Positions 18,533 through 36,424 of a stretch of DNA of 40,850 nucleotides are shown in pieces. Within the stretch, counting starts at the first letter, position 1; the number at the start of each line of letters is the position of its first letter. The stretch comes from an uncultured Actinotalea sp. GTDB lineage: Bacteria > Actinomycetota > Actinomycetes > Actinomycetales > Cellulomonadaceae. The notes below the pieces were generated by a model. The model was not told the DNA's origin. It did not search any database and worked only from the letters and a program-made list of their open reading frames with translations. The translations under genes were made by a program, and so were the position numbers. Location: the NCBI GenBank assembly GCA_963521045.1, contig CAUQTR010000001.1, positions 1 to 40,850 on the forward strand, given 5' to 3'.

Positions 18533-18658
18533 ACTGCCGACACCCGCTTTGGGAGTTCGATCTTGGACTAGCGGTGACGGCCTGACCTGGGGAAACACAT
18601 GCGGGTAGTTCGCCAGATGACCCCCTTCCGGAATGCTCGCTGACCACGTGCTGACCAC
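18533..18658. repeat. Distal att site: tRNA-Arg core copy plus arm with GCTGACCAC direct repeats
   Basis: 22/23 match to tRNA 36371-36393. 18556-18658 is homologous to 22408-22510. GCTGACCAC occurs at 18639 and 18650. Confidence 0.85.
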
Positions 18659-18711
18659 AGCGCTCCCGCTTCTCGCGCTCGACCCTCGGCCGTCCCGCGC
18701 TCACGCGAGCC

Positions 18712-18960
18712 TCATGCCGCGGCGGTGCGCAGCGCGGTGACGCCAAGGTGTGGGCTCATCCGATCGTTGAGTGCGTAGCCGACGATCCGGTTGCTCAACG
18801 GGTCCTTGATCGCGCAGCAAGAGACCTCGCCGTCGGCGGTGAGATGCTCGGTGATGTCGGTGACGCAGACCCGATCCGGTCCGGTCCGCGGTGAAGGTGT
18901 GCTGGACGCGGTCGTCGTGGACCGCGGGACCCGCTAACTTCCTCGCGCCGGGCGGCCCTT
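18712..18960 (-). pseudogene. IS3-family transposase remnant (frameshifted rve fragment)
   Basis: GPAVHDDRVQHTFTAD, then after a frameshift VCVTDITEHLTADGEVSCCAIKDPLSNRIVGYALNDRM and a premature stop. This matches the start of the IS3 OrfB DDE core. Confidence 0.8.
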
Positions 18961-19158
18961 GCGGACGGGGGATGACCAGAGCCGTGCTGGGAGCACAGCC
19001 GCCAGACCCAGCGGTACGTCGCGCCACAGATGGAGTGTCAACCAGCCCTGCAGCAGTCCCGAGCGACAGGCCGCAGCCCTGTCCGGCAGCCGCCCTTCCT
19101 GGAAGACTGCGGCGAAGAAGCCGGCGGTCCCGGTCAGCGCAGCCCTGGAGGCACAGGC

Positions 19159-21681
19159 ATGGCCATGAAGGCGTTCCTCTCTTACGCGCACGCGGACGGC
19201 TCGCTAGTAGCAGCCGTGGCCAACAAGGTCGGGCGCCCTTTCGTGCACGTCGACGAGATTACATTCCATGCGGGCGACGAACTCCTCGCTTCGATGGAGC
19301 GGGCGGTAAGCGATGCGACCGTCTTCGTCCTATTCGCGTCTCGCGCTTCGCTCGATTCGGTGTGGGTCAGTTTCGAAGCCGAGCAAGCGCGCTACCTCCG
19401 GGCGGTTCGGCGCATCAAGAAGGTACTCGTCGTCCTCCTTGACGACCGCCTTTCCGCTGGCGACTTGCCTCCGTGGCTGCGCGAGACAAAGTATCTTCGC
19501 TCCCGTTCACCAGGACCCATTGCTCGAGCAATACGCTCGCTGATCGATGACCTAGTCCAGGAAGACCAACACAGTCTGTTCGTGGGACGTGCGGAGGAGA
19601 CAGCGAGCGTACAAGCTGCACTTGTCTCGCCAGACCTTGGTAAACCAACATCTCTGATCGCGATATGCGGCCTCCCTGGCATCGGGCGTCGCACCCTCCT
19701 CGCGAGGGTCGCAAAGGACACGCTTGCGTACGCCCGCGTCCTCACCGTGATCGTCGAGCCAGGTGACAACATCAATGCTCTGGCCATCAAACTCGCGGAC
19801 CTGGTCGAAGGAGCGGCGTCAGCTGACGAAGCCATCGCGCTCGCCCGGGAGATTGAGCAGGCTCCCGAAGACGTCGCCACTAAGCGCTTCATCTCCTCGC
19901 TGGAGAAGGCGAGCAAACTACATGAGCTAGTTGCTCTGTACGACGAAGGTGGGCTGTTAGAGGATCGGGGAGGACCCGTCGCATCATTCCTCCCCGCACT
20001 AACGGCGGTCGGTGCTAGGGATGACTTGCTTCTCGCCCTTGTGACCAATCGTAGGCCTTTCTTAGCACTCGGATCGACGGACATCGAGGTACCGGTTGTT
20101 GACGTGAGACCCTTGCGAGAGGAGGAGAGTCGGCAACTATTGGCGCTCCAGGCCCGTTCCCGTGGGCTCTCTTTGGAGCCTGCCGACCTGCGCAAGCTCG
20201 CGCAACAAGTGCGTGGATACCCGCCATCTGCCACTGCGATGACTCTCATGGTCGGCGCCTATGGAGTGGCCCTTGCCCTAGGGAACACGGACTCTCAATA
20301 CCAGCCCCGGCCGCTTAACCGCTACCTTCGGCAGTTGAGGCTCTCGCGCGCCGAACGGAACATTTTGCGAGTCCTCGCCGCCAACAGCCCTCTGCCGATC
20401 GACACGCTTCTCAAGCTCTCCGGCGCCGCCCGCGAGGAAGCAATCGGTGCCTTGACTAATCTGATCGACGCCTCCGTCGTCGCTCCCAGGGCCGGCACCT
20501 CGTGGTACGAGATCAGCGAGCCCGTCGTTGCCTACGTGGACCGCGAGTACCCGCCGTGTTCTGTCGAGGAATACGCGACGATCGCCGACGAATTGAGTAA
20601 GACGCTTGAAGAGGATCGGAGCGGCGGGCCATACCTTGACCTCGCGCGCACCTTCTATCGCTCCCTAGTGCGCGCTGGGCGGAGCTTGCAGCCACGCGCC
20701 TACGCCCTTCTATCAGACTGGCTCAGGCTCGCTGCTGACCTATATCACCACCGCGACTACGAGCAAGCCCTCCAATACGCCACTCTCGCACACGAGCAAG
20801 GCGGTCCGTCGGAGGCACTCCAATGGGTCGTGAAGTGCAACGTCAAACTGGGTGACTACCCGGCCGCGACTGATCGGATTGCCGAGCTCAGGCGTCAGGG
20901 CGAAGTGCGTGAGGCACACTTCCTCACCGGCTTCCTAGAGCGTCATCGCGGAGAGCATCGGAAAGCGATAAACGCGTACGAACTCGCTAGATCAGCCGGT
21001 CGGGGCGGCCTCGCCCTTGAACGCGATCTGGCCGATTGTTACCTCGAGGTGAATGACCTTGAGCGCGCAGAGGCTCGCATCAAGGCAGCACAAGACAGGC
21101 AGCCCGACAACCCCTACGTGGTCAGCCTGCGGATCAAGATCGCGTGTCGGACGGGTGACGAGACCACAGCGCGCGAGCTGCTTCCGCTCCTACACGAGGT
21201 CGACGAGCCGGCGTTTGCGAACCATAGACACTCACGGGTTGAGTTGGCCTTCGGTGACGCGGAGACGGCATATGACTACGCACGCCGGGCCGTGCAGTCG
21301 ACGGACCGCCCTCCCTTTGAGGCGCTCGCGAACCTGTGCGTGTGCGAGCTTCGGACGAACCGGTTAGAGGACGGCAAGACGTCTCTGACTCGCTTGTCGA
21401 AGCTTTACAAGTCGCAACGACCGAACGTCCAGGGCGGACTGCAGGCCCGTGTCGCAATAATCGAGAGGCGCTACGAAGACGCCCTCGGCCATCTTGCCGG
21501 TCTTGACGCCACCGGCAGTCCGGAGCACCTGGCGTTGAAGAGGGACGCCCTCCGAGGCATCCTCGATACAAGCTTCGTTGCACACGGGGTCCGCCAGCAA
21601 CATCAATCGGAGATCGACCGGATCGAGTCCGTCCTTTCCGCGCGGCCGAACCCGAACCTGTGGGTTATAGGCCCTGATTAA
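19159..21681 (+). CDS. TIR - STAND-type NTPase - TPR protein (NLR/Avs-like candidate antiphage protein)
   Basis: TIR: AFLSYAHAD...FVLFASRASLDSVWVSFE. NTPase: LFVGRAEE, ICGLPGIGRRT, LVALYDEGG, LVTNRR, VRGYPP. Helical TPR-like C-terminus. GGAGG RBS 7 nt before the ATG at 19159. Confidence 0.82.
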   Translation: MAMKAFLSYAHADGSLVAAVANKVGRPFVHVDEITFHAGDELLASMERAVSDATVFVLFASRASLDSVWVSFEAEQARYLRAVRRIKKVLVVLLDDRLSAGDLPPWLRETKYLRSRSPGPIARAIRSLIDDLVQEDQHSLFVGRAEETASVQAALVSPDLGKPTSLIAICGLPGIGRRTLLARVAKDTLAYARVLTVIVEPGDNINALAIKLADLVEGAASADEAIALAREIEQAPEDVATKRFISSLEKASKLHELVALYDEGGLLEDRGGPVASFLPALTAVGARDDLLLALVTNRRPFLALGSTDIEVPVVDVRPLREEESRQLLALQARSRGLSLEPADLRKLAQQVRGYPPSATAMTLMVGAYGVALALGNTDSQYQPRPLNRYLRQLRLSRAERNILRVLAANSPLPIDTLLKLSGAAREEAIGALTNLIDASVVAPRAGTSWYEISEPVVAYVDREYPPCSVEEYATIADELSKTLEEDRSGGPYLDLARTFYRSLVRAGRSLQPRAYALLSDWLRLAADLYHHRDYEQALQYATLAHEQGGPSEALQWVVKCNVKLGDYPAATDRIAELRRQGEVREAHFLTGFLERHRGEHRKAINAYELARSAGRGGLALERDLADCYLEVNDLERAEARIKAAQDRQPDNPYVVSLRIKIACRTGDETTARELLPLLHEVDEPAFANHRHSRVELAFGDAETAYDYARRAVQSTDRPPFEALANLCVCELRTNRLEDGKTSLTRLSKLYKSQRPNVQGGLQARVAIIERRYEDALGHLAGLDATGSPEHLALKRDALRGILDTSFVAHGVRQQHQSEIDRIESVLSARPNPNLWVIGPD

Positions 21682-22342
21682 GGGTACGCCCCCGCTATCC
21701 GGTGAGATGTGGCTCCTCCCCTGTTCACCGGCCTGTCGTCGTAAACTCGCAGACCTCCAGCGGCGCCACGATCCTCGCCCTCTCACGCGGAGCCTAGTCG
21801 AATCGCCGATGTAAGCCTGCAGAACCTCGCGAGGGGATGAGCCTCTGCACGGTGAATCGGATCCGACAGACACGTGGAGGCGCTCAAGTCGGCGCGCGGC
21901 AGGGGAACCACAGGAGCGACTTCGCGCCGGAAGTTGGTGCGGCCGCGAACCGAGGCCCCGCTCACGGCCGGCGAGAATCGCCGCCACGGTTATCGCCCGG
22001 GGGATCCGCCTCGTCGGACGGCGACGGCGACGTGGTGGAAGCGGTAGTTGATGGCCGCGTCACGGAGACATTCGGGCGCGCACGCCCTGAAGTTACGGTG
22101 ACACTTCGCAACGGGACCGTGGTTCGGACCGCTCAAGCAGAGACGTCCCGCTCAGGTGCCTCCCCATCCCGTGGTGGCGGAGGACCCAAGTGCCGCGCGC
22201 CGAGACTACATCCAGTACGGCCGAGCGGAGCGCGGAAATCGGGGCCCGAGGCAAGCGGCGAGTCCTCCATTGACACGTCCGCGGACATCCGTCCACGTCG
22301 CCGACGGACCGTCCACTTTCCGAGACAAGTCGCGACTCCTGT

Positions 22343-22510
22343 CCCTGACCTGTAGCAACACGCTGTGCGCCCGTGCAGATAGGAACTGCCGCCACCCGCT
22401 ATCGGAGTTCGATCTTGGATGGCGGATAACGCGCTGGCCTGCGGATCTACATGCGGGTAGTTCGCGTGGCGACCCCGTTCCGGGGTGCTCGCTGACCGCA
22501 CGCTGACCAC
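22343..22510. repeat. Internal attP-like junction between the two tandem elements
   Basis: 22343-22407 is a degenerate copy of 36329-36393 (tRNA 3' half plus flank); 22408-22510 matches 18556-18658. Confidence 0.85.
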
Positions 22511-22720: not shown

Positions 22721-24565
22721 CTACTCGGCCTCGCCCGGAAGGTGTCCACCCGCGACTGGCGGTCGATCGAAGAAGCCCCAACGCCCACCCTCGACGCCGG
22801 CGAACTCCGCGACACTGCCACGCACGACGGCATCCCCTGGGTCCACGTTCTCGAGGACAATCGCCTGACCGAGGAACTCCTCATCGAGGAACCTGTAGAA
22901 CTTCTGAGCCACCTCGTCCGCGATCAGTTCGTCGTTCCCACCCCCACCGCCGTCGCCCGCCCTTCGCTTTGGCGACTTGTACGTCACGAGAGGAGAGTCG
23001 AGCACAACAAACCCTGGGTGCGGCTGACCATTGCGAAGGCACAGTTGTGCGAGTGCGACCATCTGAGCCGCGAAGAGAATCGCTCTAACGCCCTTGCCAC
23101 GGTCGGCTCTACGCTTACCCTCGAGAATGGGCTCGAGGTTGTCAGCGGACACGTGGGCCGAACTCCCGCCTCGCACTCCCCAAGCCGTAAGTACGGAAGC
23201 CAGTTCCCGAGAAAAGTCGGACAACATTAGCGGCGAAAGCTGCAAGTCTGGCAGCGGTTGGCCCTCCACAACCCGGATATCCGCTCGGAAGCGCTCAATG
23301 GACTCGAGTTGCGCGTACTTGGCGAGGACCGCCTCAACCTCCGACAACTTGGCCCGCAGGATCTCTAAGTCGGACCGAGACGGCGCAACTTGCGCCGAGA
23401 GAGATGCTATCCCGCGCGAGAGATCCCGCAGGACGGCCTCATTTTCCCGAATCTCCACTCGGAGTTTCGCACGCTCGCGTTCGAGTTCATCCATCGTAGT
23501 CAAGAGGCCTGCGCGGAGCGTTCGCACGCGCGACCGCTCACGTTGGACAGCGTCGGACATCGACGCATCCGCCTCATGCTCATGGGTAGTGACCGCCAGC
23601 TCTTGCCCGCACAACGGACAACGTCCTGGCTCATAGAGCCCCATCACCACTGCGCTCTCTTCGACCACATCGAGCCGTTCGAGATCGCTTCGGTACTGTT
23701 CGCTCAGGAGTGCGAAACGAGTGAGCGACTCCGAGATGCTGCGCTCACGCGCGTTGGACTCTTCGATGAGCGCGTGGACTCCCGCATACCTCCTGCGCTC
23801 ACTCACAAGCTGAAGAAGCACTGGCTCAAGACCCTCGGAGCCCGCCTGAAGCGATGCGAGCAATCGCTCGCGCATTCCGTGCGCCTCAACCCTCGACGGA
23901 AGGTCGCTCAGTTCGCCAATCAACTGGCCCATGAGTTGGTCAAGCAACTCGCGCTGCTTCCTGCTGAGGGCCTTCTCCTTGCGCCCCGCCCCCTTGACCT
24001 GCGGGGGGTCTGACCGGCCCGCCAAGACGCAGCGAACCAGCGACTTTTCTTTCGTGTTTGTCTCGAAGCGTCCCGACGAGAAAGGCGCCGACTTGCCGAA
24101 GACCCGGTCCTCAGATCCGATCACGAGGTGCAGGAAGTCCCGGAAGCCGACGTTTTCGGTATCGCCGTCCGAGTTTCGGATCACTACCCAGCCGTCGGCG
24201 CCGATGGCACTCAACATCGTGCGCGACACGTTGTCCGTTGTGGTTGCCGAGTGTCGCGCCTTCAGGGCCATCGGTGGCGCGCCGCTCCCGGGCGTGTAGA
24301 GGAGTTCGCCCCCGTCAAGGTCACGCTCAAAGACGGCCGATGGTCCTCGCCCAGCGGACCACTCGAGCCGCAGCTTGTCGTAGCCCTCAGACTCCGGCAG
24401 CTGCCGGAGGGCGCGAGTCCCGCCCAACATGTAGTCGATCATGTCCGCGATGTAGGACTTGCCGGTGTCTGAAGCGCCGTGGATGACGGTGAGTCCGTCC
24501 GCGAACGTGACGCTGGCTGGAGCGACCCCTTCGCCAATCGCATGGAGGCCTCGAAGCAGCACCAT
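22721..24565 (-). CDS. lmuB: Lamassu/ABC-3C SMC-like ATPase (LmuB-like)
   Basis: Walker A GASDTGKS, coiled coils with a central CPLC hook, variant signature RGKGVRA, Walker B FVVLDSPL, and LEN. Confidence 0.85.
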   Translation of the reverse strand: MVLLRGLHAIGEGVAPASVTFADGLTVIHGASDTGKSYIADMIDYMLGGTRALRQLPESEGYDKLRLEWSAGRGPSAVFERDLDGGELLYTPGSGAPPMALKARHSATTTDNVSRTMLSAIGADGWVVIRNSDGDTENVGFRDFLHLVIGSEDRVFGKSAPFSSGRFETNTKEKSLVRCVLAGRSDPPQVKGAGRKEKALSRKQRELLDQLMGQLIGELSDLPSRVEAHGMRERLLASLQAGSEGLEPVLLQLVSERRRYAGVHALIEESNARERSISESLTRFALLSEQYRSDLERLDVVEESAVVMGLYEPGRCPLCGQELAVTTHEHEADASMSDAVQRERSRVRTLRAGLLTTMDELERERAKLRVEIRENEAVLRDLSRGIASLSAQVAPSRSDLEILRAKLSEVEAVLAKYAQLESIERFRADIRVVEGQPLPDLQLSPLMLSDFSRELASVLTAWGVRGGSSAHVSADNLEPILEGKRRADRGKGVRAILFAAQMVALAQLCLRNGQPHPGFVVLDSPLVTYKSPKRRAGDGGGGGNDELIADEVAQKFYRFLDEEFLGQAIVLENVDPGDAVVRGSVAEFAGVEGGRWGFFDRPPVAGGHLPGEAE

Positions 24566-25020
24566 TAGTCGCCTTCCTCCGCCCGGACGTTCAGACTCTC
24601 CACATCGGCGCGAATCAATTGGGAATACGCCTCGGTCAGCGCTTCCTCCGACATCCCGCCAACAATCTCAACGGCTTGGCGACAGGAGGACTTCAGCCTC
24701 TCTGCCCCAGGGCACTCCAGAAGTTCTACAAAGCCGAGCGCACGCTCGGTGGCCCGATAGGAGCCGGCTTCAGGGTCGAGCGTCATGAGTTCCGCGCGCA
24801 CGAAGATGCTCGCGCCCGCCCTGACGTTCGCCCTCCGTACAGCGAGTCCGGTGCTGGCCTGCGTCACCGGAGGCTGCACGGCTTCAACGCCACCACCACC
24901 AAACAGCACCAAGTGCTCCATAAGCGCTAACCGATCGAGGTCGATAGGCGTTGGCCAGGCAGCTGCCAGCAGGCAGGTCGCGTGTACTCCGGCCTCGTAA
25001 GGTCCATTGAGCAGGATCAT
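24565..25020 (-). CDS. lmuC: ABC-three-component middle component (MC2-like; LmuC-like)
   Basis: 151 aa, LNGPYEAGVHATCLLAAAWP..IDLDRL. Coupled to both neighbours (ATGA and TAATG overlaps). Confidence 0.75.
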   Translation of the reverse strand: MILLNGPYEAGVHATCLLAAAWPTPIDLDRLALMEHLVLFGGGGVEAVQPPVTQASTGLAVRRANVRAGASIFVRAELMTLDPEAGSYRATERALGFVELLECPGAERLKSSCRQAVEIVGGMSEEALTEAYSQLIRADVESLNVRAEEGD

Positions 25021-26105
25021 ATTTCTTCGGCCACCCATCGGAGCCGCCCGTCCCCGGCGAGCTGGTGGCACGCCCCCTGCTTCTCCTTTACACCGCCACT
25101 CTGGACAAGCGCATTCGCTGAGAGATCAACTGTGGCGGCTTGGGCTAATGTTGCGGCGAGTCTCTCATAGCCGGTTCCGTATTCCATCTCGCATGTGTCC
25201 ACCACTCCACTGTGTATCTGATCCGTATAGCCCGCATACGTGCCGTCCGGGAGGAGGTCTCGGACATGCCTCTCGAGAGTCTCCGCGCAGTAGAACAGCT
25301 CCCGCTGCCGGAGTAGGTGCGAGGCCGCCTTCGGATGCGCCGAGCACTCCGCGAAGCCTGCATACTCGGGACCATACTTCTCGACATAGACGGGCCAAAG
25401 AGCCCGCAGGAAGTTCGCCTCGTCGTCCGTTGGGTTTTGCGGCACGGGCCCTGGCTCGGGCACCGGCGGTATCCCACCGCCGAATCTCAGCACATAGCGG
25501 TCGGTGCGCTTGTGGAGCTCAATCATCTCGTCGACGTTCTTCTCACGGAAGATCGAGAAGTCGATCGTCTGGGCAAGTTTGCGTACCGCTTCGAGACGGT
25601 GGGCCCGGTCTACATTCGACCTGTCTTCTTGACTTTCGAGCCACTCAATAAAGGCCGCTTTGAGATCATCGGCGCCGTTCAGCAGTCTCAGGAGATGAGG
25701 GCCGCAGCCTCTTGGCGCGATAAAGTAGTACGCACGCGGAAGGACCCACACGCCTTCCGCGACAGCCCAGAGGAACTTAAAAATCTCCTTGTGCGCGTCG
25801 AGTGGCTGGAGGCTCGCTGCGTAGTGCTTACACTGATAGGCGTCCCACTCGTCTCGGAAGCCAGACTCGGTGAGCCAGCCAGCGACGTCCACGCCCCTGT
25901 CGCCCGCGCCTGCGATGCGCCCAACGCGGTAGTAGCTCGGGAGCACTCGGACCCACTCGTTAGTGAACTCTTCCCATTCGTCCGGGTCAAAGATGCTGAT
26001 TAGCTTCTTCGGCGACCGAAACGCGCCCATCTGGACCTGGCCAGCGCCCATGCGGATGGGCGCGCTCGAGGCCGGGATCTCGGAAAGTCCCGGGTCTTCG
26101 CTCAC
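25017..26105 (-). CDS. lmuA: Lamassu effector (LmuA-like): Mrr-type restriction endonuclease domain + ABC-3C C-terminal domain
   Basis: EWEEF...GAGDRGVDV...YQCKHY (D...QxK nuclease). C-terminus QRELFYCAE...KQGACHQLA.DGRLRWV. Probable GTG start at 26105. Confidence 0.8.
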   Translation of the reverse strand: MSEDPGLSEIPASSAPIRMGAGQVQMGAFRSPKKLISIFDPDEWEEFTNEWVRVLPSYYRVGRIAGAGDRGVDVAGWLTESGFRDEWDAYQCKHYAASLQPLDAHKEIFKFLWAVAEGVWVLPRAYYFIAPRGCGPHLLRLLNGADDLKAAFIEWLESQEDRSNVDRAHRLEAVRKLAQTIDFSIFREKNVDEMIELHKRTDRYVLRFGGGIPPVPEPGPVPQNPTDDEANFLRALWPVYVEKYGPEYAGFAECSAHPKAASHLLRQRELFYCAETLERHVRDLLPDGTYAGYTDQIHSGVVDTCEMEYGTGYERLAATLAQAATVDLSANALVQSGGVKEKQGACHQLAGDGRLRWVAEEI

Positions 26106-26511
26106 GGTGTTCCCCCGTCCCCTGCCGCCGGTGGAGAGCACCGCCATCGTGCCAGCCAGCAGGCGCTTGAGGTCGGACTTCTCGCGCGCCCGTGTGTCTC
26201 GCGGCTGCCCTGCCGCCCGGGCGGCGGCCCATCAGCGCCGGTGCAAAGGGCTCGTTCAGGAGCTCGCTCGCCCCTTCGGGCGCTCGGCACTCCTCGATGC
26301 AAGAAGAGTCGGCTTGGGTCATCGGCTTCCGAAGCCAGGCCGACTGTGACGACACGCGGATGTCGCCTCGCTGAGCATCGCCGCCCCCGCCGGCGCTCCG
26401 GGTGGACGCGCGTCGGAGCGAGCTCGCCTCTGCTGCCGCAGGTCGCCCGCGTACTCAGTCCCGGAGCGCGGCCGAGACGGGCGCGACGGCCCCGATCAGT
26501 ACCCTGGGCGC

Positions 26512-27240
26512 ATGTTTGAACGCACCGTGAACTACGACGCGGTCTACGTGCCGTTCGAAGTCGACGACGACGCCGCGTTCGCGCTGGCGTTCGACTGGCT
26601 GCTCTCGAGACCGGGCGGCCCGCTCGTTGTGTTCCACGCGAAGAAGATGGTCACGAACAACCGGCAGCTAGAGTCGCTGATCCAGCGTCATCGCCTCCCC
26701 GTCGTCGCGCCGCCGCGGGTGCTTGAGGGCGGCTGGACGGGCGGTGCGGTGCTCGCCCCGTGGGCGTCCGGGAAGGTCCTCGCCGCGATCGATGACCAAC
26801 TCGGCTCCCGAGCCAACGGCGTTTGCGTGATCGGCGGCGCTCTCGGTGAGCATGAAGCATGGGTCCGAGGGCACCGCGCGCGAGACCTGAGCCAGCGCGG
26901 TGCCGAGCCGGCGCGAGCCGTCCTCGACCCGGTCGTGGAGGTGGCCATGCTTCACGCGACGACGGCTGTGAACCACAACAACGCCCTGCTCCAGGACGAC
27001 GACAAGGCATACGTGATCAGAACGCTCCAGCTCCTCGACGAAGCGGGACTGGACTGCGAGACGGACACACTGTGCGCCTGGGCGACCGAGCACGGCTGGA
27101 CGGCGACCGAGGTAGAACGACTGCGCGAGTACGCCGCCGGGGTCCGCGCCCGACGGAGATTCGTATTGCGGAGCAGTTGGGGCCCGAGCAACGACGCCTT
27201 AAGCCACTGGAGGCGTGAGGCGGCCGAGCGTCTCGGATGA
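26512..27240 (+). CDS. Hypothetical protein with a C-terminal region resembling DUF1889/YoaC
   Basis: Clean 242-aa ORF with protein-like composition. The C-terminal LDPVVEVAM...VNHNNAL...DKA...HGW pattern recalls DUF1889 (from memory, not searched). Confidence 0.65.
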   Translation: MFERTVNYDAVYVPFEVDDDAAFALAFDWLLSRPGGPLVVFHAKKMVTNNRQLESLIQRHRLPVVAPPRVLEGGWTGGAVLAPWASGKVLAAIDDQLGSRANGVCVIGGALGEHEAWVRGHRARDLSQRGAEPARAVLDPVVEVAMLHATTAVNHNNALLQDDDKAYVIRTLQLLDEAGLDCETDTLCAWATEHGWTATEVERLREYAAGVRARRRFVLRSSWGPSNDALSHWRREAAERLG

Positions 27241-27902
27241 CCCGTCGCAAGCGCGCACGTGGTGCCTCTGCACCGTGGCCTGGCCCGGAAGTCATGTCTG
27301 ACGGGCTAGCCGTGCCCGGTCGAGGCTGACGCTTCGTGCGAGGTCCGACACGACACCACAGGGGTCGCCGTCTATCGGTCCGGGCATCGAGGCGCAGAGC
27401 CAGTCACCGCATCTCGACACCGAAGACGCGGCGTCGAGCCAAGTTGCCGAGCTGGACTGGGCCACCGGCAGATAGGACCTGCTCGCAACGCTACGGGTGC
27501 TGCACGAGGCCGGCGGTGCCCTGCGGGTGGACCTCGTAGCGACGAGCAGCGCTCCTCGGTCTGCGGCGTGGCGTCGCAGCCGATACGCGAGGCCCTCGAC
27601 CGCCGCGCGGTGGTCGCCGGGTCCGCTTCGGTCCTCCACAAAGCGCAGGTCCACCTGCGTGCTGGTACACGCGCTTTGGCTCGAGGTTGCCGTTGAGGCG
27701 TTCGACGAGGAACGGGATCCCATACTCTGCCGATGCGGCGATCTCTAGTGCCTGGCTCGTCGTCGCGGCGCTATCGCCCTCCAGGGCCCGCCATCCCACT
27801 GGACCGGCGTGCCCCCCAGAGCACCAGGCAGGCGACGAAACGGACCAGGCCCTCCGCCACGACCGAGCTTGAGACGGAGCGCCTTGCCGCCGATAGAAGG
27901 GC

Positions 27903-28799
27903 ATGACGACCACGTCCGACGGGGACGCCGTCGCCCCGGCCAAGGTGATGCGCCTGCGCTACGCGGGCACCTGCGCAGGGTGCGGCGCAGAACTTGAGTC
28001 CGGGACCCATGCGGCGTACTACAGGGCCACGAAGACCGTCCGCTGTCTCGCATGCATCGAATCGGACGAGCCAGTGTCTTCGGCGGCGCCGGCGGATAAA
28101 CCGCCTCTGGACTCGACGCCGGCGCCCACCCCCGATGCCATCGAGACGGGGGCGGCGGGCTCCTCCGCCCGACGCGAGTACGAACGTCGGTCCGCGAAGC
28201 GCGAGGCTCGGATTCGCGAAGCGCACCCGCGGCTTGGTGGCCTCATCCTCGCGCTTACCGACGAGCCTCAGAGCACGGCCGCCTGGGCCAGCGGCGCCCG
28301 CGGGGAGGAGCTGCTGGGTGCGCGACTGGCCGATCTCACGCAGAAGGGTGTCCGCCTCCTCCACGACCGCCGGATCCCCGGGACAAGGGCGAACATCGAC
28401 CACATCGCCGTCGGACCCACAGGCGTTCACGTCGTTGACGCCAAGCGCTACAAGGGCCGGCCGTCACTTCGCGTCGAGGGCGGGCTGCTCCGGCCGCGCG
28501 TGGAGAAGCTCCTCGTCGGCTCGCGCGACTGCACCCGCCTGGTCGAGGGCGTCCACAAGCAGGTGGGTCTCGTCCGGTCCGCACTCGACGCCGTGACACT
28601 CACGGACGTGCCCGTGCACGGCACACTTTGCTTCATCGAGGCCGACTGGCCCCTCATCGGCGGATCGTTCGTCATCGCCGACGTCGCCGTCGTATGGCCC
28701 AAGAAGGTCGCCGAGCGCCTCGTCGCGCCGGGCGGGATGAGCGAGGCGGACGTCGAGACGGTTCACCGAGCGCTCGCACAGGCTTTCCCGGCCGCGTGA
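27903..28799 (+). CDS. NERD (nuclease-related domain) protein with N-terminal CxxC...CxxC zinc ribbon
   Basis: CAGC...CLAC, then GARGEE...LHDRRIPG..ANIDHIAVGPTGVHVVDAKRYKG. Confidence 0.85.
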   Translation: MTTTSDGDAVAPAKVMRLRYAGTCAGCGAELESGTHAAYYRATKTVRCLACIESDEPVSSAAPADKPPLDSTPAPTPDAIETGAAGSSARREYERRSAKREARIREAHPRLGGLILALTDEPQSTAAWASGARGEELLGARLADLTQKGVRLLHDRRIPGTRANIDHIAVGPTGVHVVDAKRYKGRPSLRVEGGLLRPRVEKLLVGSRDCTRLVEGVHKQVGLVRSALDAVTLTDVPVHGTLCFIEADWPLIGGSFVIADVAVVWPKKVAERLVAPGGMSEADVETVHRALAQAFPAA

Positions 28800-29058
28800 G
28801 CCGGGAGTAGGGCCCTACGGGGCGCCCCCGCCCTGTACGCCCTGCTACTGCTCCGTAGCCGCCTGACGGCGTCGTCGTCCGAGTGGCCGCTTGGACGCAT
28901 GGCGTCGCGTTCCCGGGCCTCCCGGCCCGCAGCCAGGGTGGTAGGCCCGCTGGCACACCTCTTCCTGAACGCCGTTGCGGCGGCAGGTGCGCATCTTCTC
29001 CCCCACCGCCGCACACCTGCAGGTAGCGACGGAGTCACGAGGGGAGGTGGGGCCGGTG
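28800..29058. other. Candidate oriT region upstream of the relaxase
   Basis: Non-coding, with several palindromes (GTAGGGCCCTAC, GGGGCGCCCC, GCAGGTG...CACCTGC). Its position directly upstream of a MOBF relaxase is typical for oriT. Confidence 0.4.
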
Positions 29059-31950
29059 ATGTCGATGCACAAGCTGACGGCCGGGGACGGGTACGCGTAC
29101 CTGACCCGGCACGTCGCCGCGGGCGATGCCGGCCTCGACGCGGGCGCATCCCTCACGGCCTACTACGAGCAGACCGGCAACCCGGCCGGCCGCTGGTACG
29201 GCGAGGGCCTCTCCGGACTCGGTGACGCGGCGCGGCGGATCCGCCCGGGCGACGTCGTGACCGAGGCGGCGATGACGGCCGTGTTCCGCGACGGCGTCGA
29301 CCCGCTCACCGATGACGCGCTAGGGCGGCCCTATAGCCGGTTCAATGACGGGAAGCGGCACGCGGTCGTCGGGTATGACCTGACGTTCACCGCGCCGAAG
29401 TCGGTATCGGTGGTGTGGGCGCTGGCCGATGACGCGACGCGCGTCATGGTCTATGACGCGCACCGGGCGGCGTTGGCGTCATCGCTGAAGTTCGTCGAGC
29501 AGCGCGTCATCCGCACGCGCATCGGCGACGCGGGCCGTCATCAGGTCCGCACCCGCGGGATGGTAGCCGCGGCGTTCGACTACTGGGACACCCGGGCCGG
29601 TGACCCGAACCTGCACACCCACGTCGTCATCGCCAACAAGGTCCAGGGGCCCGACGGCGCCTGGCGGAGCCTGGACGGGCGGACCGAGCACGCCGCCGTC
29701 GTCACCGTGTCCGAGCTGTACGACGCGCTGCTCGCCGACGAGCTCGCGCGGCGGCTGCCGGTGGAGTGGTCGATGCGCGACCGCGGGCCCCGACGGAACC
29801 CGGCGTTGGAGCTCGACGGGATCGGCGACGACCTGCTGGCGCACTTCTCGACGCGAGCGGAGGCGATCCACTGCGCCGAGCAGGAGTGGCTCGCCCATTT
29901 CGAGGCCACCCACGGCCGAGCACCGACGCGCATGGAGACGACGCGTGCGCGCCAGCACCTGACGCGGGCGACGCGGCCGCCGAAGACGGTTCGGCCGCTG
30001 GCCGACCTGTTGGCGGACTGGGCGAACCGCGCCCGGGCGCTGACCGGGCTCGAGCCGCACGACCTGGCCGCCCGGGCGCTGGCCGGCGCCTACGGGCGAG
30101 CGCTACACGCGCACGACGTCGGCCCGGAGGTCCGGGCGGCAATGGTCGCCCAGGTGCTCGACGACGTGTCGACGCGGCGGTCGGTGTGGACGACGTGGAA
30201 CCTCGGCGCCGCCGCAGTCCGCGCGTCGAAGCTGCTGCGGATGGCCTCGCCCGCCGAGCGGAGGGCGCTTCTCAACGAGATCACGGTCGATGCTGCGGCG
30301 GCGTGCGTGCACCTGGACGACAACCGCGACCCGATGACGCGGCGGGTCGGGGAGTCACTGTTCACCTCGACCGAGCTGCTGGGGACGGAGAAGGTCCTCA
30401 TCGACGCCGCCGAGACCACCGGCGCTCCGCACCGGCCGGCGGAGATGCTCGGCGTCATCCAGCTGCGCACGGAGCACCACCTCGGCGTCCTCGCCCCGGA
30501 CCAGCGCGCGGCCGCCGAGGCCGTCATCACCTCCGGGCGTCTGCTCGACGTGCTGGTCGGGCCGGCTGGGTCGGGCAAGACCACCACGCTCGCCGCGCTG
30601 ACGTCGTTCTGGCGTCACGGCATCGGGTCCGTCGTCGGGCTCGCGCCGTCAGCCACCGCGGCGCGTGCGCTGGCGGAGTCGCTCGGGGTGCCGTGCGAGA
30701 CGACCGCGAAGTGGCTGCACGAGTCCACCGGCGAGGGCGCCGCCACCCGCGCCCTGCGGTACGCCGACGCCCTCGCCCGCATGGCGCCCGGGGACTACCG
30801 CGAGATGCGTGCAGCCAACGAGGAGCAATGGCGGCTGCGGGCGGAACAGGACCAGTGGCGGTTCTCCCCCGGGCAGCTCGTCATCGTCGATGAGGCATCG
30901 CTCGCCGATACCCGCACGCTGGCCACGATCGTCGAACATGCACGCGCCGCAACGGCGAAGGTGCTGTTGGTCGGGGACCACCTGCAGCGTGGGTCGGTCG
31001 ACGCCGGCGGCGGGTTCGGGATGCTCGCCCGCCGTGGGCCTACCGCCGAGCTGACCAGCCTCTGGCGGTTCGCCCACCCGTGGGAGGCGCGGGCCAGCCT
31101 CGAGCTTCGCCGCGCCCACCCCGAAGTGCTTGACGCGTACGAGGCGCACGGCGCCATCGCTTCCGGCGGGCACGACGCGATGCTCGACGCCTCGATCAAC
31201 GCAGTCACGGTCGCAAGCGAGCGGGGCCGCGTCGCGGTGCTGCAGGCGGTCGACAACCGGACCGTCCGCGAGCTCAACGCGCGCATCCAAGCCGACCACA
31301 TCACCACCGGGCAGGCCGCACCCGCCGGCGTGAGCCTGCACGACGGGCTGGCGGCCGGCGTCGGCGACCGCATCGTCACCCGCCGCAACCACCGCCGGCT
31401 GGCCACCGCCGACGGGTTCGTGCGCAACGGCGCCCTGTGGGATGTCACCGCCGTCCTGCCCGACGGATCCGTCCGTGTCCGGCCCACCAACCAGTCCGAC
31501 GCGGCCACCGTCCGGCTCCCCGGGGACTACGTCGCCGAGCACGTCGAGCTCGGCTACGCCACGACCATCGCCCGCACCCAGGGCATGACCGTCGACGAGA
31601 CCCACACGATCGCCTCCCCCGGCATGGGCCGCGAGGACCTCTACGTCGCGATGAGCCGCGGCCGCCACACCAACTGCGCCTACGTCGTCGTCGACCAAGG
31701 CGAGCCGGAGTGCCTGCCCGGCCAGGCGCCGTCGTCGGGCCGCGAGGTCCTCGAGCAGATCCTTGCGACCAGCCACACCGAGCCCAGCGCCACCGAGACC
31801 TGGGACAGCTACCACCCCGGCCGCGCCGCGCCCCTCGTGCCGCCCGCGCGCCCACAGCAACCGTGGACGGCCGTGCCTCCACAGCCTGCCCCGCACCGCT
31901 TGACCCACGTCCCGCCGTCGGTCCCCGATGGGCCGGTGCTCGGGCTCTAA
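29059..31950 (+). CDS. MOBF (TrwC/TraA-type) relaxase-helicase
   Basis: Relaxase: GDGYAYL, YY, GRWYGEG, GYDLTFTAPKSVS, DPNLHTH. RecD-like helicase: GPAGSGKTT, VDEAS, LVGD, GYATTIARTQGMTVD, YVAMSRGR. Confidence 0.92.
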   Translation: MSMHKLTAGDGYAYLTRHVAAGDAGLDAGASLTAYYEQTGNPAGRWYGEGLSGLGDAARRIRPGDVVTEAAMTAVFRDGVDPLTDDALGRPYSRFNDGKRHAVVGYDLTFTAPKSVSVVWALADDATRVMVYDAHRAALASSLKFVEQRVIRTRIGDAGRHQVRTRGMVAAAFDYWDTRAGDPNLHTHVVIANKVQGPDGAWRSLDGRTEHAAVVTVSELYDALLADELARRLPVEWSMRDRGPRRNPALELDGIGDDLLAHFSTRAEAIHCAEQEWLAHFEATHGRAPTRMETTRARQHLTRATRPPKTVRPLADLLADWANRARALTGLEPHDLAARALAGAYGRALHAHDVGPEVRAAMVAQVLDDVSTRRSVWTTWNLGAAAVRASKLLRMASPAERRALLNEITVDAAAACVHLDDNRDPMTRRVGESLFTSTELLGTEKVLIDAAETTGAPHRPAEMLGVIQLRTEHHLGVLAPDQRAAAEAVITSGRLLDVLVGPAGSGKTTTLAALTSFWRHGIGSVVGLAPSATAARALAESLGVPCETTAKWLHESTGEGAATRALRYADALARMAPGDYREMRAANEEQWRLRAEQDQWRFSPGQLVIVDEASLADTRTLATIVEHARAATAKVLLVGDHLQRGSVDAGGGFGMLARRGPTAELTSLWRFAHPWEARASLELRRAHPEVLDAYEAHGAIASGGHDAMLDASINAVTVASERGRVAVLQAVDNRTVRELNARIQADHITTGQAAPAGVSLHDGLAAGVGDRIVTRRNHRRLATADGFVRNGALWDVTAVLPDGSVRVRPTNQSDAATVRLPGDYVAEHVELGYATTIARTQGMTVDETHTIASPGMGREDLYVAMSRGRHTNCAYVVVDQGEPECLPGQAPSSGREVLEQILATSHTEPSATETWDSYHPGRAAPLVPPARPQQPWTAVPPQPAPHRLTHVPPSVPDGPVLGL

Positions 31951-31983: not shown

Positions 31984-32196
31984 ATGACCACCACCGCACA
32001 GCACACCGCCCCCATCACCCCGGCTCGGCAGTACTACCGCGTGAAGGACGCGGCGCGGGTGCTCGGGGTGCCGCCCCGGACGCTGTACCACCTGGTCGAG
32101 CACGAGCAGATCCCGTACCGGCGCCTCGGCACGGTGATCCTGCTGCCGGCGGCGTGGGTCGAGCGCGAGCCGACGATGCCGGTGAAGCGGCGCTGA
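31984..32196 (+). CDS. Excisionase-like HTH (Xis/HTH_17) protein
   Basis: YYRVKDAARVLGVPPRTLYHLV...IPYRRLG. Strong GAAGGAG RBS; TGATG overlap with the integrase. Confidence 0.85.
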   Translation: MTTTAQHTAPITPARQYYRVKDAARVLGVPPRTLYHLVEHEQIPYRRLGTVILLPAAWVEREPTMPVKRR

Positions 32197-33329
32197 TGTC
32201 CGTCACCAGGCGGGCGCACTCGACGGGCAAGGTGACCTGGCGCGCGAAGGTGTTCTTCGAGGGCCGGGTCATCGCGCAGCGGTCGTTCGAGCGCCGAGTC
32301 GATGCCAAGCGCTGGGAGGCCGACCAGCTCGCGAAGCTGGACGCCGGCTCGTGGATCGACCCGGCGCGTGGGCGAATGGCGTTCGCGGCGCTGGCCGAGG
32401 AGTGGCAGGCCTCGCGTGGCCACCTGGCGGTGCGCAGCCAGGAGACCACGCGGTTCCTGCTGGACAAGTACGTGATCCCGGAGATCGGCGCGTACCCGAT
32501 CTCCGGGATCTCGGCGGCCGACGTCGAGCGGGTCATGTCCGCACTGACGGCGCGCGGCCTGGCGACGGCGACGCGGCGTCGGGCGCTGTCGATGATCCGG
32601 CTGGTGTTCGACTACGCGATCCGCGACCGGCGGCTGAGCGTGAACGTGGCGCGGATGGTGGCGCTGCCGCGCGGGGGAACGAAGCGCGAGCCGCACTGGC
32701 TGCGGCCCGAGCAGCTCGGCCGGTTGGTCATGGCGGTGCCGCCGCTGTGCCAGCCGGTGGTGCTGTTCCTCGGAACGACGGGGTGCCGGTTTTCGGAGAT
32801 GGCCGCGCTGCGGGTCGACGACGTCGTGCAGACGCCACACGGGCTCGGGGTGCGGGTGCACCGCGCGGCGACGCAGTCCAAGCGGACGAGCGGGGCGGTG
32901 TTCGGGCCGACGAAGACGCACCAGACGCGGACCGTGCCGGTGCCGGCGGCGCTGGATGAGTACGTGCGGACGCGGGTCGCCTTCACCGCGCCGGGCGGGT
33001 ACCTGTTCCCGAGCCCGACCGGGGCCGTGTGGACCAACACGAACTTCCGGGCGCGGTCGGGGTGGATGGAGGCGACGCGGAGGGCGGGCGTTGAGGGGAC
33101 GACGATCCACGACCTGCGGCACACCGCCGCGTCGCTGCTCATCGCAGCCGGGGCGGACGTGAAGGCCGTGCAGGTGATCCTCGGGCACTCCACGGCGACG
33201 ATGACGATGGACCTGTACGGGCACCTGTTCAGCGAGGCGACCTGGCAGGCGATGGAACGGCTGCCGGTGATACCGCTGATGCAGGCGCCGCGGGCGATCG
33301 AGCCCCCAGGCGTCACGCCGAGCCCGTAG
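32196..33329 (+). CDS. int: Tyrosine recombinase/integrase
   Basis: All catalytic residues present: TGCRFSE, PTKT, HDLRHT, LGHS, LYGH. N-terminal arm-binding-like region WRAKV...SFERRVDAKRW. Confidence 0.95.
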   Translation: MSVTRRAHSTGKVTWRAKVFFEGRVIAQRSFERRVDAKRWEADQLAKLDAGSWIDPARGRMAFAALAEEWQASRGHLAVRSQETTRFLLDKYVIPEIGAYPISGISAADVERVMSALTARGLATATRRRALSMIRLVFDYAIRDRRLSVNVARMVALPRGGTKREPHWLRPEQLGRLVMAVPPLCQPVVLFLGTTGCRFSEMAALRVDDVVQTPHGLGVRVHRAATQSKRTSGAVFGPTKTHQTRTVPVPAALDEYVRTRVAFTAPGGYLFPSPTGAVWTNTNFRARSGWMEATRRAGVEGTTIHDLRHTAASLLIAAGADVKAVQVILGHSTATMTMDLYGHLFSEATWQAMERLPVIPLMQAPRAIEPPGVTPSP

Positions 33330-33343: not shown

Positions 33344-33364
33344 GGCTCCGCTGGTACCGGAGCC
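33344..33364. terminator. Hairpin between convergent integrase and ATPase genes
   Basis: GGCTCCG-ctggtac-CGGAGCC. Confidence 0.5.
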
Positions 33365-33376
33365 GGCGCAGCCTCT

Positions 33377-34720
33377 TCACTTCGCGTGGCGACCCCTGCT
33401 TCTCGGTGCGTCAGAATCAAAGCCCTCATAGGACTGTGACACTCGCAAGTCGACATTTGGGTAGATCGAGGGGCAGAGGTGGACATACGTGCGAAACATC
33501 TCGTCCGTGAACCTCGAGAACGCCCCCTCGCGAACGCTTCGGAGAACGGCTCCATAGCCGGTTTGGTGCAACTGATCCAAGTACCGCCTCGCTTCTGCGA
33601 CCCCGAGATCCTTCGCTCTCTGTTCGATCAGCGGGAGGGGCAAGTCAGACCCGGACGCCTCCGCGGCGACACGCAGAACCAGCTCCCTGTCCTTCGATTC
33701 ACCGATCGCATGTCGATAGAGCCCCGCATAGTTCTGCGCTAGCCTCGACTGAAGCAGGTGACTGATCGCCTCGGCGATGTCGGACGCGGTCACCTCGCTC
33801 TGACCAGCGTCATAAGCTCGGATGAGAGATGACTGGCCGAGTAGGTGGACGAACCAGGGAAATCCTGCCGCAGCCTTGATGATTCGATTGCGAGACCGCG
33901 GCCGAAATTGGATCTCAACGCCGCCGCCCGCCAGGGTTGTTTCCGCACGGGCGATGATCGTGTCCAGCTCGGCCCCGCTCATCGGCGGTACATGGACGGG
34001 AAGAAGGCTTCGCACGACGGATTCATGGTCAGCTAGCAGTTCCGAGTGGCTGTCGGCAATCCCGACAAGCATGAACTTCAACCAGTCTGAGGAGTGGGCC
34101 TTGAGGAAGGATGCTAGGCCCGCACTGTCCGTCAACAGATCGACCTCATCGACAACGATGAGGACTCGCCGACCAATGCACGTTGCGACGACTTCACACG
34201 TCGAGATCAGCCGCTCCTCGAGCGTGGGGGCTGCGCTTGACGGGCGACGGGCCTCGTGAGAGGTCTTGCCCCACTCCCGCTTCACAAACGTCGCTGAGAG
34301 TTCGGTGCGCGATGTTCGCTCAGTGACCTCTTGGGATCTCGCTTCTAGACACTCACGTGCGTCCGGATGTGCCTCCACCGCGTTGATGATCAACTGGAGG
34401 AGCCCCGCGAGGTTCCCAGTCGTGCGTGTGCAACTGACCCACGCAACGAGGAACGTCTCCTCGGGCGTGAACATCAACTCCGAGAAGCCAAGGTGGTCGA
34501 GCAGGGCTGAGTCGCCCATCGCGATTCGTCGCATCTGGCGCGCCAGACTGGACTTCCCGAGACCACGGTGACCGTAGATCAGTGGAACGGAGCCTTCTGT
34601 ACGGAGCGCGTCCGCGACCTCGCGCACTTCCGCGGCGCGCCCCGCGAACCGAGCTGGGTCATCGATCTCCTGGGACGGGAGAAAGGCGTTGAGCACCACC
34701 GATCGCTGCGCGTCCGCCAC
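33377..34720 (-). CDS. Stand-alone STAND/ORC-Cdc6-like P-loop ATPase with probable C-terminal winged helix
   Basis: Motifs AFLPS...FAGRAAE, Walker A GHRGLGKS, Walker B LIVVDEVD, MLVG, and GFPWFVHLLG (GxP motif). Confidence 0.8.
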   Translation of the reverse strand: MADAQRSVVLNAFLPSQEIDDPARFAGRAAEVREVADALRTEGSVPLIYGHRGLGKSSLARQMRRIAMGDSALLDHLGFSELMFTPEETFLVAWVSCTRTTGNLAGLLQLIINAVEAHPDARECLEARSQEVTERTSRTELSATFVKREWGKTSHEARRPSSAAPTLEERLISTCEVVATCIGRRVLIVVDEVDLLTDSAGLASFLKAHSSDWLKFMLVGIADSHSELLADHESVVRSLLPVHVPPMSGAELDTIIARAETTLAGGGVEIQFRPRSRNRIIKAAAGFPWFVHLLGQSSLIRAYDAGQSEVTASDIAEAISHLLQSRLAQNYAGLYRHAIGESKDRELVLRVAAEASGSDLPLPLIEQRAKDLGVAEARRYLDQLHQTGYGAVLRSVREGAFSRFTDEMFRTYVHLCPSIYPNVDLRVSQSYEGFDSDAPRSRGRHAK

Positions 34721-35046: not shown

Positions 35047-36162
35047 ATGATCGAGCCCGTTGAGTCGCCCGAATTATCGGGACCGGCACCGACCGGCGCC
35101 GTCCTCGGAGGCGTGACTGAGGCCCGGAACCGGGTGACCTCTGTCGTCGAAGAGTCGGTGCGCAGCCTCCTTCGCGAGGCCGGGTACCGGGTGTCCAAAC
35201 AGAAGATGGCGGTCTGGTGCCACCATCCGGAGAAGCCACAACGGCTACTCCCTCTCACGCCCGACATCGTTCTGATCGGAAAGCGGCTGGCGATCGAAGT
35301 CGACCCCTGCGGACACCTCACGAGCCATCGAGGCGCAAGCCATCGAGGCAAAGAGGCTGAGGATCTGCGGCGCAACCAGCTCCTGCAGGCCGTGGGCTGG
35401 ACAGTGCTCCGCCTGCGGCTAGGTGCCGAGAAGGGGATGCAGATCGGTGCCCGCGACGTCGTCTGCGAGTCCTCCGCGCTCACAGCGGACGCCGCTCAGG
35501 CCCTACTCGCGGCGGTCGACGACGCAATCGAGAAGCGCCAGCCGCTCGTACGCTTCGTATCGAATAAGTCCACCGCAGTGCCGAGGAAAGCGCCGATTCG
35601 CCGCTCCAGCGTCGTCAGGCTTGCCGAGTACACGTACGGGGACCAGGCGCACATCTTCTCCTGGCTGCCCGATCTCGAGAGCAGCAACCGAGTGCACCTC
35701 CGACTCGCCTTCGACGGGCGCTTCCTCTACACTCACGACCAGCCGCCGCGCTTCATCGGCGCCGTCGATCTGAACGAGCTTCCGCACTCCGACTGGAAGA
35801 CCCGGTTGCAGGAAGTGCTGCCAACACTCGCCCGTCTGCCGCTTGCAGGCGCCGGGAAGTACCCGTGGGGCGAGGAGTTGTTGGTTGTGGAGTCCTTGGA
35901 CCAAGATGCCGTCGCCATCGTGAACGCCTGCGAGTGGAAGTGCGACATTGACCGAGCGGACTACTCCTTCACGATCAACTGCGAGCGTCTGGCGAGCGTT
36001 ACCGACACCTCGCTCCTCGACGAAGCCGGCCACGTGATCGTGAGCCTCCACCCAAGGGCTGCCGATCTCGGCTACCGATTCGTGGGGGTGGAACGCCTCA
36101 ACGGCTACCGCGGACCGTACGAGCGGATCACTCTCACGCGCCGACTGGCCGGGGAGCCCTAG
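35047..36162 (+). CDS. Protein with N-terminal DUF559/Vsr-like endonuclease domain and unknown C-terminal domain
   Basis: TPDIV...LAIEVD...H...EDLRRNQLLQAVGWTVLRLR follows the Vsr/DUF559 pattern. The exact start is uncertain. Confidence 0.7.
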   Translation: MIEPVESPELSGPAPTGAVLGGVTEARNRVTSVVEESVRSLLREAGYRVSKQKMAVWCHHPEKPQRLLPLTPDIVLIGKRLAIEVDPCGHLTSHRGASHRGKEAEDLRRNQLLQAVGWTVLRLRLGAEKGMQIGARDVVCESSALTADAAQALLAAVDDAIEKRQPLVRFVSNKSTAVPRKAPIRRSSVVRLAEYTYGDQAHIFSWLPDLESSNRVHLRLAFDGRFLYTHDQPPRFIGAVDLNELPHSDWKTRLQEVLPTLARLPLAGAGKYPWGEELLVVESLDQDAVAIVNACEWKCDIDRADYSFTINCERLASVTDTSLLDEAGHVIVSLHPRAADLGYRFVGVERLNGYRGPYERITLTRRLAGEP

Positions 36163-36258
36163 GGCGCCGTGGGGAGGCCGAGCCTCGGCGTGTCCTCCCA
36201 GGCGTCCGTCGGCGTCCGTCCGCGTTCTTGACAGGCCGTCCATGTCCTGAGACAAGTC

Positions 36259-36277
36259 GCTGACCACACGCTGACCA
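36259..36277. repeat. tRNA-proximal integrase arm-type direct repeats GCTGACCA(C), 11-bp period
   Basis: The same motif pair occurs at 18639/18650 and 22491/22502. Confidence 0.7.
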
Positions 36278-36351
36278 ATGCCCGGCAAATCGGACACAAC
36301 CCCGCGGTCGCCGCGGCACCCAAACCGCCCCTGACCTGCAACAACACGCTG

Positions 36352-36424
36352 TGCGCCTGGGCAGATTCGAACTGCCGACACCCGCTTTAGGAGAGCGGTG
36401 CTCTATCCCCTGAGCTACAGGCGC
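36352..36424 (-). tRNA. tRNA-Arg(CCT)
   Basis: GCGCCTGTAGCTCAGGGGATAGAGCACCGCT-CTCCTAA-AGCGGGTGTCGGCAGTTCGAATCTGCCCAGGCGCA folds as a cloverleaf with anticodon CCT. CCA is not encoded. Confidence 0.95.

Follow-up and report, generated by a model that had tools for sequence, protein, structure and literature searches.

The tRNA-Arg(CCT) locus

We have analysed a 40,850-nucleotide stretch of DNA from an uncultured Actinotalea sp. (contig CAUQTR010000001.1, here called the window, the longest contig of a metagenome assembly of 2.6 Mb and 501 contigs), in which a tRNA-Arg(CCT) gene is followed by two units of 14 and 3.9 kb that end in copies of the tRNA 3' half. The copies of the core, a 23-mer, lie at 36371–36393, 22385–22407 and 18533–18555, that is, at spacings of 13,986 and 3,852 bp, as a preliminary description of this DNA had it, and a search of the whole assembly that tolerated up to four mismatches found no further match. 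Reading inward from the tRNA, the 14-kb unit holds genes for a DUF559-like protein and a STAND-like ATPase, then the integrase, excisionase and relaxase genes (int-xis-mobF, all in one direction), and then the genes of a NERD and a DUF1889-like protein, followed by the Lamassu operon. In the 3.9-kb unit, an intact TIR-STAND-TPR gene lies between two gene fragments (Table 1). On the evidence set out below, the 14-kb unit is most likely an integrative and mobilisable element (IME) that sits on what remains, after decay, of an earlier element from the same family, a remnant of the kind termed a cis-mobilisable element (CIME).

Table 1 Features of the tandem at tRNA-Arg(CCT), in order from the tRNA gene
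Feature	Position	Strand	Evidence or remark
tRNA-Arg(CCT), target gene	36351–36424	-	ARAGORN; sole tRNA called in window
Left (P') arm of 14-kb element	36200–36350	-	9-bp repeats at 36259 and 36270; conserved beside tRNA in many relatives
371-aa protein, weak DUF559/Vsr-like nuclease domain (cargo slot 1)	35047–36162	+	Pfam DUF559 E 5e-4, marginally below cut-off
447-aa AAA_16/nSTAND1-type ATPase (cargo slot 1)	33377–34720	-	No defence-system match
Tyrosine integrase (int)	32196–33329	+	Above cut-off for PF00589 and PF22022; has the catalytic R, HxxR, H and Y motifs
Excisionase-type helix-turn-helix protein (xis)	31984–32196	+	TIGR01764 31.3 bits, cut-off 28.8
MobF (TrwC) relaxase-helicase (mobF)	28975–31950	+	NF041492 243.6 bits, cut-off 100
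Conserved stretch ahead of shared mobF start	28933–29060		88–96% identical in closest relatives; backbone edge
NERD nuclease-domain protein (cargo slot 2)	27903–28799	+	PF08378; same place in 3 related elements
242-aa DUF1889-like protein (cargo slot 2)	26512–27240	+	Atlas 0.96; no Pfam or PADLOC match
Lamassu/ABC-three-component operon (cargo slot 2)	22721–26147	-	lmuA 25017–26147, lmuC 24565–25020, lmuB 22721–24565
Right (P) arm of 14-kb element	22408–22510	-	Best relative 90% identical
Middle core and displaced tRNA tail	22365–22407	-	7/43 positions differ from tRNA, 2 within 7-bp loop
Left (P') arm of 3.9-kb remnant, damaged	22276–22364	-	Net 59-bp deletion, arm repeats gone
Frameshifted cargo-gene fragment	22029–22183	+	blastx E 1e-8; whole gene at same position in G004:C8
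TIR-STAND-TPR (NLR/Avs-like) gene, 840 aa, intact	19159–21681	+	TIR_2 and TPR_19 above cut-off; nSTAND1 below
Insertion-sequence transposase gene fragment (rve domain, IS3-like)	18720–19069		
Right (P) arm of 3.9-kb remnant	18556–18658	-	76% to right arm of 14-kb unit; best relative 81%
Terminal core (attR), decayed tRNA tail	18513–18555	-	12/43 positions differ from tRNA, 1 of 7 in loop

The DNA beside the cores aligns in the two places given in the preliminary description: 22343–22407 matches 36329–36393 at 86% identity, and 18524–18658 matches 22376–22510 at 77% ungapped identity (BLAST E 1e-26). The first of these matches extends further than was then seen, continuing from 22276–22333 to 36203–36260 (74%) with an offset of 59 bp, and the left arm of the middle copy has therefore suffered a deletion. 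Paired 9-bp repeats, which by analogy with the lambda-type att layout we take to be the arm-binding sites of the integrase, are present at 36259/36270, 22491/22502 and 18639/18650 and were lost from the middle copy's left arm by this deletion. The middle site, described earlier as attP-type, is instead a chimeric junction at which the right end of the 14-kb unit meets the 3.9-kb unit's damaged left end, and it contains no whole attP; the further proposal that one integrase family produced both sets of ends is borne out. In the sense of the tRNA, identity among the sites begins exactly at base 1 of the anticodon loop, and the 3' half of the tRNA gene, from 36393, is presumably element-derived (attL). 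No class is commoner in Islander than anticodon-centred sites, with 2,083 of 3,919 islands (PMC4383910; here and below, statements on published work refer to the parts of each source that were covered). The G + C content is 72% in the genes left of the terminal core and 64% inside. A scan for sigma-70 promoters and terminators gave no match and is uninformative for this DNA.

The 14-kb unit

The 14-kb unit has a central mobF-xis-int backbone with one cargo slot on each side; the backbone, at 73% G + C, is host-like, and the cargo, together with the 3.9-kb unit, is at 64–66%. Ten genes were called between the arms, and among all of them Pfam recognised no coupling-protein, pore, replication or phage gene; there was likewise no Pfam match among the unit's genes to the FtsK/Tra translocase and Rep that mark actinomycete integrative and conjugative elements (AICEs). 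An integration and excision module, attL and attR bounds (the right core being degenerate), a relaxase and the lack of a full conjugation apparatus are all seen, and by the sequence definition the unit is an IME. The conserved stretch ahead of mobF is a candidate oriT or promoter.

In slot 2 the lmuA, lmuC and lmuB genes form a single operon, in that order, with PADLOC scores of 311, 74 and 429 bits for LmuA, LmuC and LmuB, respectively, and the Pfam domains CTD6 and MC2. For the 371-aa protein of slot 1 there is a lead to PvuRts1I/AbaSI-like nucleases (Atlas feature score 0.93, 169/256 shared); no sequence in the PDB matches it, and in a pairwise comparison it was not similar to a slot-1 protein of genome G001 (genomes, contigs and loci are cited by our own handles). 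A broken GNAT-like gene fragment lies at 27425–27740, and a whole version is present in G021:C1.

The 3.9-kb unit

The 3.9-kb unit has family att flanks, of which the left arm is part-deleted, and no recombinase or transfer genes were found in it; with this content, it falls under the CIME definition given in PMC5704250 and PMC10201445. Profiles of the family int and mobF (nhmmer) gave nothing below E 0.1 in the unit. The fragment at 22029–22183 had the appearance of a mobF remnant at the first blastx and was rejected as such, being a different cargo gene.

Its TIR-STAND-TPR gene has the architecture of an effector, a STAND NTPase and TPRs with intact motifs and fits no numbered Avs type. PADLOC TIR-NLR matches it with 63 bits over 272 of 824 positions, and residue E73 of the TIR domain, the P-loop G171–T179 and D262 are invariant in 13 of 13 aligned sequences, the alignment being made from 13 of the 50 homologues found. 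The gene was not found in 400 other genomes of the order or in 50 integrase loci, and a metagenome scan for it gave a single weak partial match.

The family in Actinotalea and Cellulomonas

Integrases 64–99% identical to that of the window are found in Actinotalea and Cellulomonas records. The search for the core and right arm beyond this place had a divided outcome: within the assembly the core is confined to the locus, and the right arm is present in 16 of 37 other genomes of the genus, with the family integrase in 17. At the 49 integrase loci (50 minus one weak Sphingomonas match) the tRNA-Arg(CCT) gene is nearby in 33 and a core copy is present in 5 more, the remaining 11 being short or cut off. 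The complete layout arm-cargo-int-(xis)-mobF-cargo-arm was found on one contig in 12 of 36 mapped stretches of genus relatives, the genes of which were called with a simple gene caller of our own. From one relative to the next, backbone and arms stay the same, and the two slots have different cargo nearly every time. According to the preliminary description, relatives with the same content and no variation at these boundaries would refute its reading; in the relatives compared, the content does vary. An exact pattern scan of the genome contigs for the terminal core plus arm end gave no match because the arm sequence varies too much.

The rpoB of the window's genome is 93% identical to that of two named Actinotalea records and 90–92% to that of the other eight, so that the host is likely an Actinotalea. 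Its integrase is 94.5% identical to the copy in Cellulomonas sp. B6, where rpoB is 90% identical, and in other hosts an rpoB of 91% goes with an integrase of 78%. Integrase identity does not track that of the host's rpoB, which points to lateral spread of the integrase family.

Arm-core-arm junctions like that in the middle of the window occur in G004:C8, G041:C4, L077 and L100 and in part in G013, and in G041 the second unit has a truncated integrase. Arm-bounded units without an integrase stand at the tRNA in G042 and G009. In two metagenome runs that contain related strains, Lamassu genes adjoin the same arm at ~92–95% identity, and another contig links the arm to mobF via 5.1 kb of different DNA. 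The tRNA gene is without arm or core in ~39 kb downstream in G015 and G010, and at least two other arm types lie beside tRNA-Arg(CCT) in G004:C23, G008, G049, G050 and G022.

Several further arrangements were seen at these loci. Three right-arm sites lie beyond the first element in G051:C4 (~273000–318100, L022–L024); the intervals of 7.6, 11.9 and 25 kb carry no family integrase, and their genes cluster with the LacI-like and ABC-transporter-like genes of the window (labels taken from translations), so that metabolic clusters may possibly have been captured here between att remnants. Three additional copies of the core, most of them nearly intact, are present in G049 and likewise in G050:C22. 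In the tRNA-Arg(CCT) of G053:C1 and G012:C151 and in L058, the usual T-stem is replaced by a variant whose two sides have matching changes, and this variant is also found in the displaced tail of G053. Locus L046 (G021:C1) combines the family right arm, MobF, the NERD gene and a Qat operon with a distant integrase, and neither a left arm nor a tRNA lies within 23 kb of it.

Cargo and defence content

We scanned 150 of 171 cargo open reading frames from 22 complete or partial element spans with PADLOC, the 21 shortest being dropped and 5 that cross sequence-fetch boundaries being absent from the cargo list, together with 148 of 156 listed flanking genes. At 150 bits or more, 15 of the 150 cargo genes, from 11 of the 22 spans, have a match and none of the 148 flanking genes does; with a threshold of E 1e-8 these numbers become 35 and 15, respectively, the flanking matches being partial and to general domains. 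The defence cargo of the relatives includes type I and II restriction-modification, Shedu, GajB, Qat, PD-lambda-5, SIR2-STAND, GmrSD and TIR proteins, and their other cargo includes transposases, regulators and metabolic genes. These annotations support an enrichment of the cargo in defence genes across relatives, and the site is, as had been proposed, a hotspot with variable content. That the cargo is mostly defence-like holds by length in the window but not in the relatives, where 115 of the 150 scanned genes have no PADLOC match and some are metabolic. Within the mapped stretches and the 50 loci, the window's NERD gene recurs in 3 related elements and its Lamassu, TIR, ATPase, DUF559 and DUF1889-like genes in none. 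At L029:4218–9156 (G041) there are genes for TIR, Vut_1, QueC, PfkB plus nucleoside deoxyribosyltransferase and an OGG-like glycosylase, with no complete PADLOC system.

Origin of the tandem

The arrangement is best explained as follows. The anticodon loop of tRNA-Arg(CCT) would first have taken up an earlier element, the 3' half of which restored the tRNA. This unit ended, as is seen, without int, xis and mobF, with its left arm deleted, with two gene fragments and with the TIR-STAND-TPR gene kept. The attP of a second family member would then have recombined with the restored tRNA gene, displacing the remnant downstream; a second integration at the restored tRNA leads to the arm-core-arm junction found in the middle. 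The constancy of backbone and arms among relatives while the two slots change belongs to the same picture, and spread would have proceeded by excision with Int and Xis and by relaxase-led transfer through the conjugation pore of a helper. The present copy is predicted to mobilise poorly, and the Lamassu operon and the TIR-STAND-TPR protein are predicted to confer anti-phage or anti-plasmid defence.

Several observations weigh against this explanation. When the reads of two metagenome runs, which contain related strains only, were mapped to the locus, no clean attP joint appeared (shares 0.05–0.06). There is no true empty site in the sample: the closest relative (rpoB 96%) has an element of its own, and G015 and G010 are without the family, yet their flanks differ. 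The order of arrival is suggested by position and decay, and since the 3.9-kb unit has no backbone remnant, a former backbone cannot be demonstrated in it. A search of the assembly, itself 62% complete, gave no TraG-D_C coupling-protein domain. The 150-bit cut-off for defence genes was picked after the data were seen, and the His-to-Tyr change in the relaxase, described below, is a single base in a metagenome assembly.

We consider it improbable that the 3.9-kb unit is instead a purpose-built minimal satellite, at no time equipped with a backbone and moved in trans by the family integrase, the locus being a cassette array. Family-type ends do enclose one intact defence gene, and integrase-less arm-bounded units recur in relatives, G051 having four successive right arms. 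Against this, the left arm is without repeats, the cores are mismatched, an insertion-sequence fragment and a frameshifted gene lie inside, and the TIR-STAND-TPR gene was not found elsewhere in the 400 genomes and 50 loci, so that the unit is known from this one copy.

The likening of the locus to an integron, made in the preliminary description, also finds no support. Integrons are similar in that a tyrosine recombinase stacks adaptive genes site-specifically. They differ in that here there is no IntI (TIGR02249 gives 56.1 bits against a cut-off of 265) and that folding of arm plus core gave no strong fold shared by the two that would suggest a conserved attC-like hairpin (z values -1.75/-2.19 for one and -0.65/+0.52 for the other). 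The target is a tRNA gene, the integrase lies within the mobile unit, beside xis and MobF, in the window and in the 12 complete relatives, and most variation is inside the elements. Of the stacked modules first proposed, the 14-kb unit over a second unit with shared ends stands, and the second looks like a decayed older element rather than a cassette.

Slightly less probable again is the arrival of both units as one 17.8-kb composite by cis-mobilisation, or a tandem duplication followed by deletion. Such transfer is reported for tandems that pair ICEs (integrative and conjugative elements) with CIMEs (PMC5704250), and mismatches in the loop are fewer in the terminal core (1) than in the middle one (2). 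The right arms are, however, 76% identical, near the family median of 79%, which argues against a recent duplication, and in the related strains the Lamassu operon lies beside the same arm while no listed piece runs across the TIR gene. This suggests that the 14-kb type occurs there without the remnant, although little can be concluded from a gap in data of this sort.

It is very improbable that the metagenome assembly wrongly joined elements from two strains at the core repeat: the window is the longest of the 501 contigs and the contigs of related strains do break at the core, but the three cores differ mutually with only short stretches of exact identity, the same junction type is found in the isolate genomes L077 and L100, and the left flank is collinear with DNA past the last arm in G009 and G042.

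That flank holds a glycosidase-like, ABC-transporter-like and TetR-like block (7870–16532) that is 86–90% identical to the blocks just past the last arm in those two genomes; 10200–16530 is 89–90% identical in 9 of the 37 other genus genomes whatever their rpoB distance. We rejected this sugar-uptake block left of 18533 as a part of the stack, there being no further arm or core elsewhere in the window, and 7 of the 9 genomes with the block having it on contigs without an arm match. Upstream of the tRNA, 37120–40587 encodes a metallophosphoesterase of at least 1,155 aa with Ig-like repeats; in the part searched, this flank is not common to the sampled relatives.

Decay of the displaced tRNA tails

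The relaxase of the window has Tyr at codon 29581, the first His of the three-His motif, where the other 49 motif rows (some from the same genome twice) and F-type TraI have His; related strains carry a different base at 29581. Lambda-type integrases usually require identity in the loop, with known exceptions. The window's copy is predicted to be partly grounded and to move poorly because both downstream cores are mismatched in the loop and the relaxase is without the conserved His.

We compared the displaced 43-bp tRNA tails of 32 distinct right-arm sites, a set that includes the window's two, was chosen by arm presence and is not independent. The tail is intact in 5 of the 32, and the mismatch rates are 1.6% at positions 1–4, 9.4% at 5–7, 4.9% at 8–14 and 28% at 15–43. 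In six sites the arm is within 2 changes of the consensus and the tail has 17–23. This pattern fits site reuse, in which the arm is renewed and the minimal attB alone is retained; plain deletions beside attR also fit. Damaged displaced fragments are described for 148 Islander islands, where they are small deletions (PMC4383910).

When excision was carried out in silico with the loop kept intact, removal of the 14-kb unit left the tRNA call in place and removal of both units lost it; in the relatives the call was lost in 5 of 17. The genome also has tRNA-Arg(TCT). Such a tRNA may decode AGG through wobble, and any lock-in may therefore be weak. A wider scheme, which we offer tentatively and think unlikely to hold as a whole, would make tRNA-Arg(CCT) a slot used again and again by an undescribed family of actinobacterial MobF IMEs with two hypervariable cargo positions: its elements would replace one another and renew the right arm, the tail would decay past a minimal site of 14 to 18 bp, precise excision would in some hosts (5 of 17 relatives, and for the whole stack here) leave no functional tRNA-Arg(CCT) and so lock the defence cargo in until repair by another member, and new defence systems would be encoded by many cargo genes that are now unannotated.

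Comparison with known systems

The arrangement is of a described kind. A three-step route to IME-CIME tandems has been set out, and the tandems are called frequent (PMC5704250). Those of that source (CIMEs of the ICESt1/ICESt3 family; IME_Sag2603_tRNAlys) share with the window the succession attL, element, chimeric internal site, decayed element, attR, a relaxase without coupling protein or pore, and an integrase-less remnant with att ends; here, by comparison, the host is actinobacterial, the relaxase is MobF, the backbone is central, a slot lies between int and attL, and one integrase family serves both units. IMEs with MobF relaxases from Mesorhizobium (PMC8627217) and gut (10.1101/214213) share the tyrosine integrase, a directionality factor beside the MobF gene and tRNA targets including tRNA-Arg, and we rejected on their account the idea that this is the first MobF IME. 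Most of the Mesorhizobium elements have a traACD locus, whereas none was called here, and host phylum and cargo differ (PMC8627217). The AICE tandems at tRNA genes (Sav3708/Sav3728; Fean6303 at tRNA-Arg) have an actinobacterial host, int plus xis and tandem att sites in common with ours, and for those of Frankia separate and joint excision has been shown; AICEs use an FtsK/Tra translocase and Rep, whereas in the 14-kb element neither was found and there is a relaxase instead (PMC3218068). Defence systems have been found in about 31% of IMEs, mobilisable islands commonly have Lamassu, and tRNA loci are defence hotspots (PMC10201445, PMC10121019, 10.64898/2026.01.13.699239); the covered parts of these sources do not describe the present family.

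The preliminary description thought the hotspot possibly undescribed. This does not apply to the arrangement, and it does apply to the family, in so far as a literature search that covered few subscription journals found no publication on it and one naming both genera and tRNA-Arg found none; members may figure among the elements catalogued in PMC10201445.

Significance

The tandem itself is ordinary, and what may at most be new is the family, as a MobF IME that is common in these actinobacteria and has its backbone in the middle between two variable slots enriched in defence genes. Nearly half of the genomes sampled from the genus have it, and its ends are sharp and its two slots defined. The mostly unannotated cargo, lying beside an annotated part that is rich in defence genes, offers candidate immunity genes from a poorly studied actinobacterial group. 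The integrase would be a site-specific one for hosts of this group, and the decay of the displaced tails maps its likely minimal attB.

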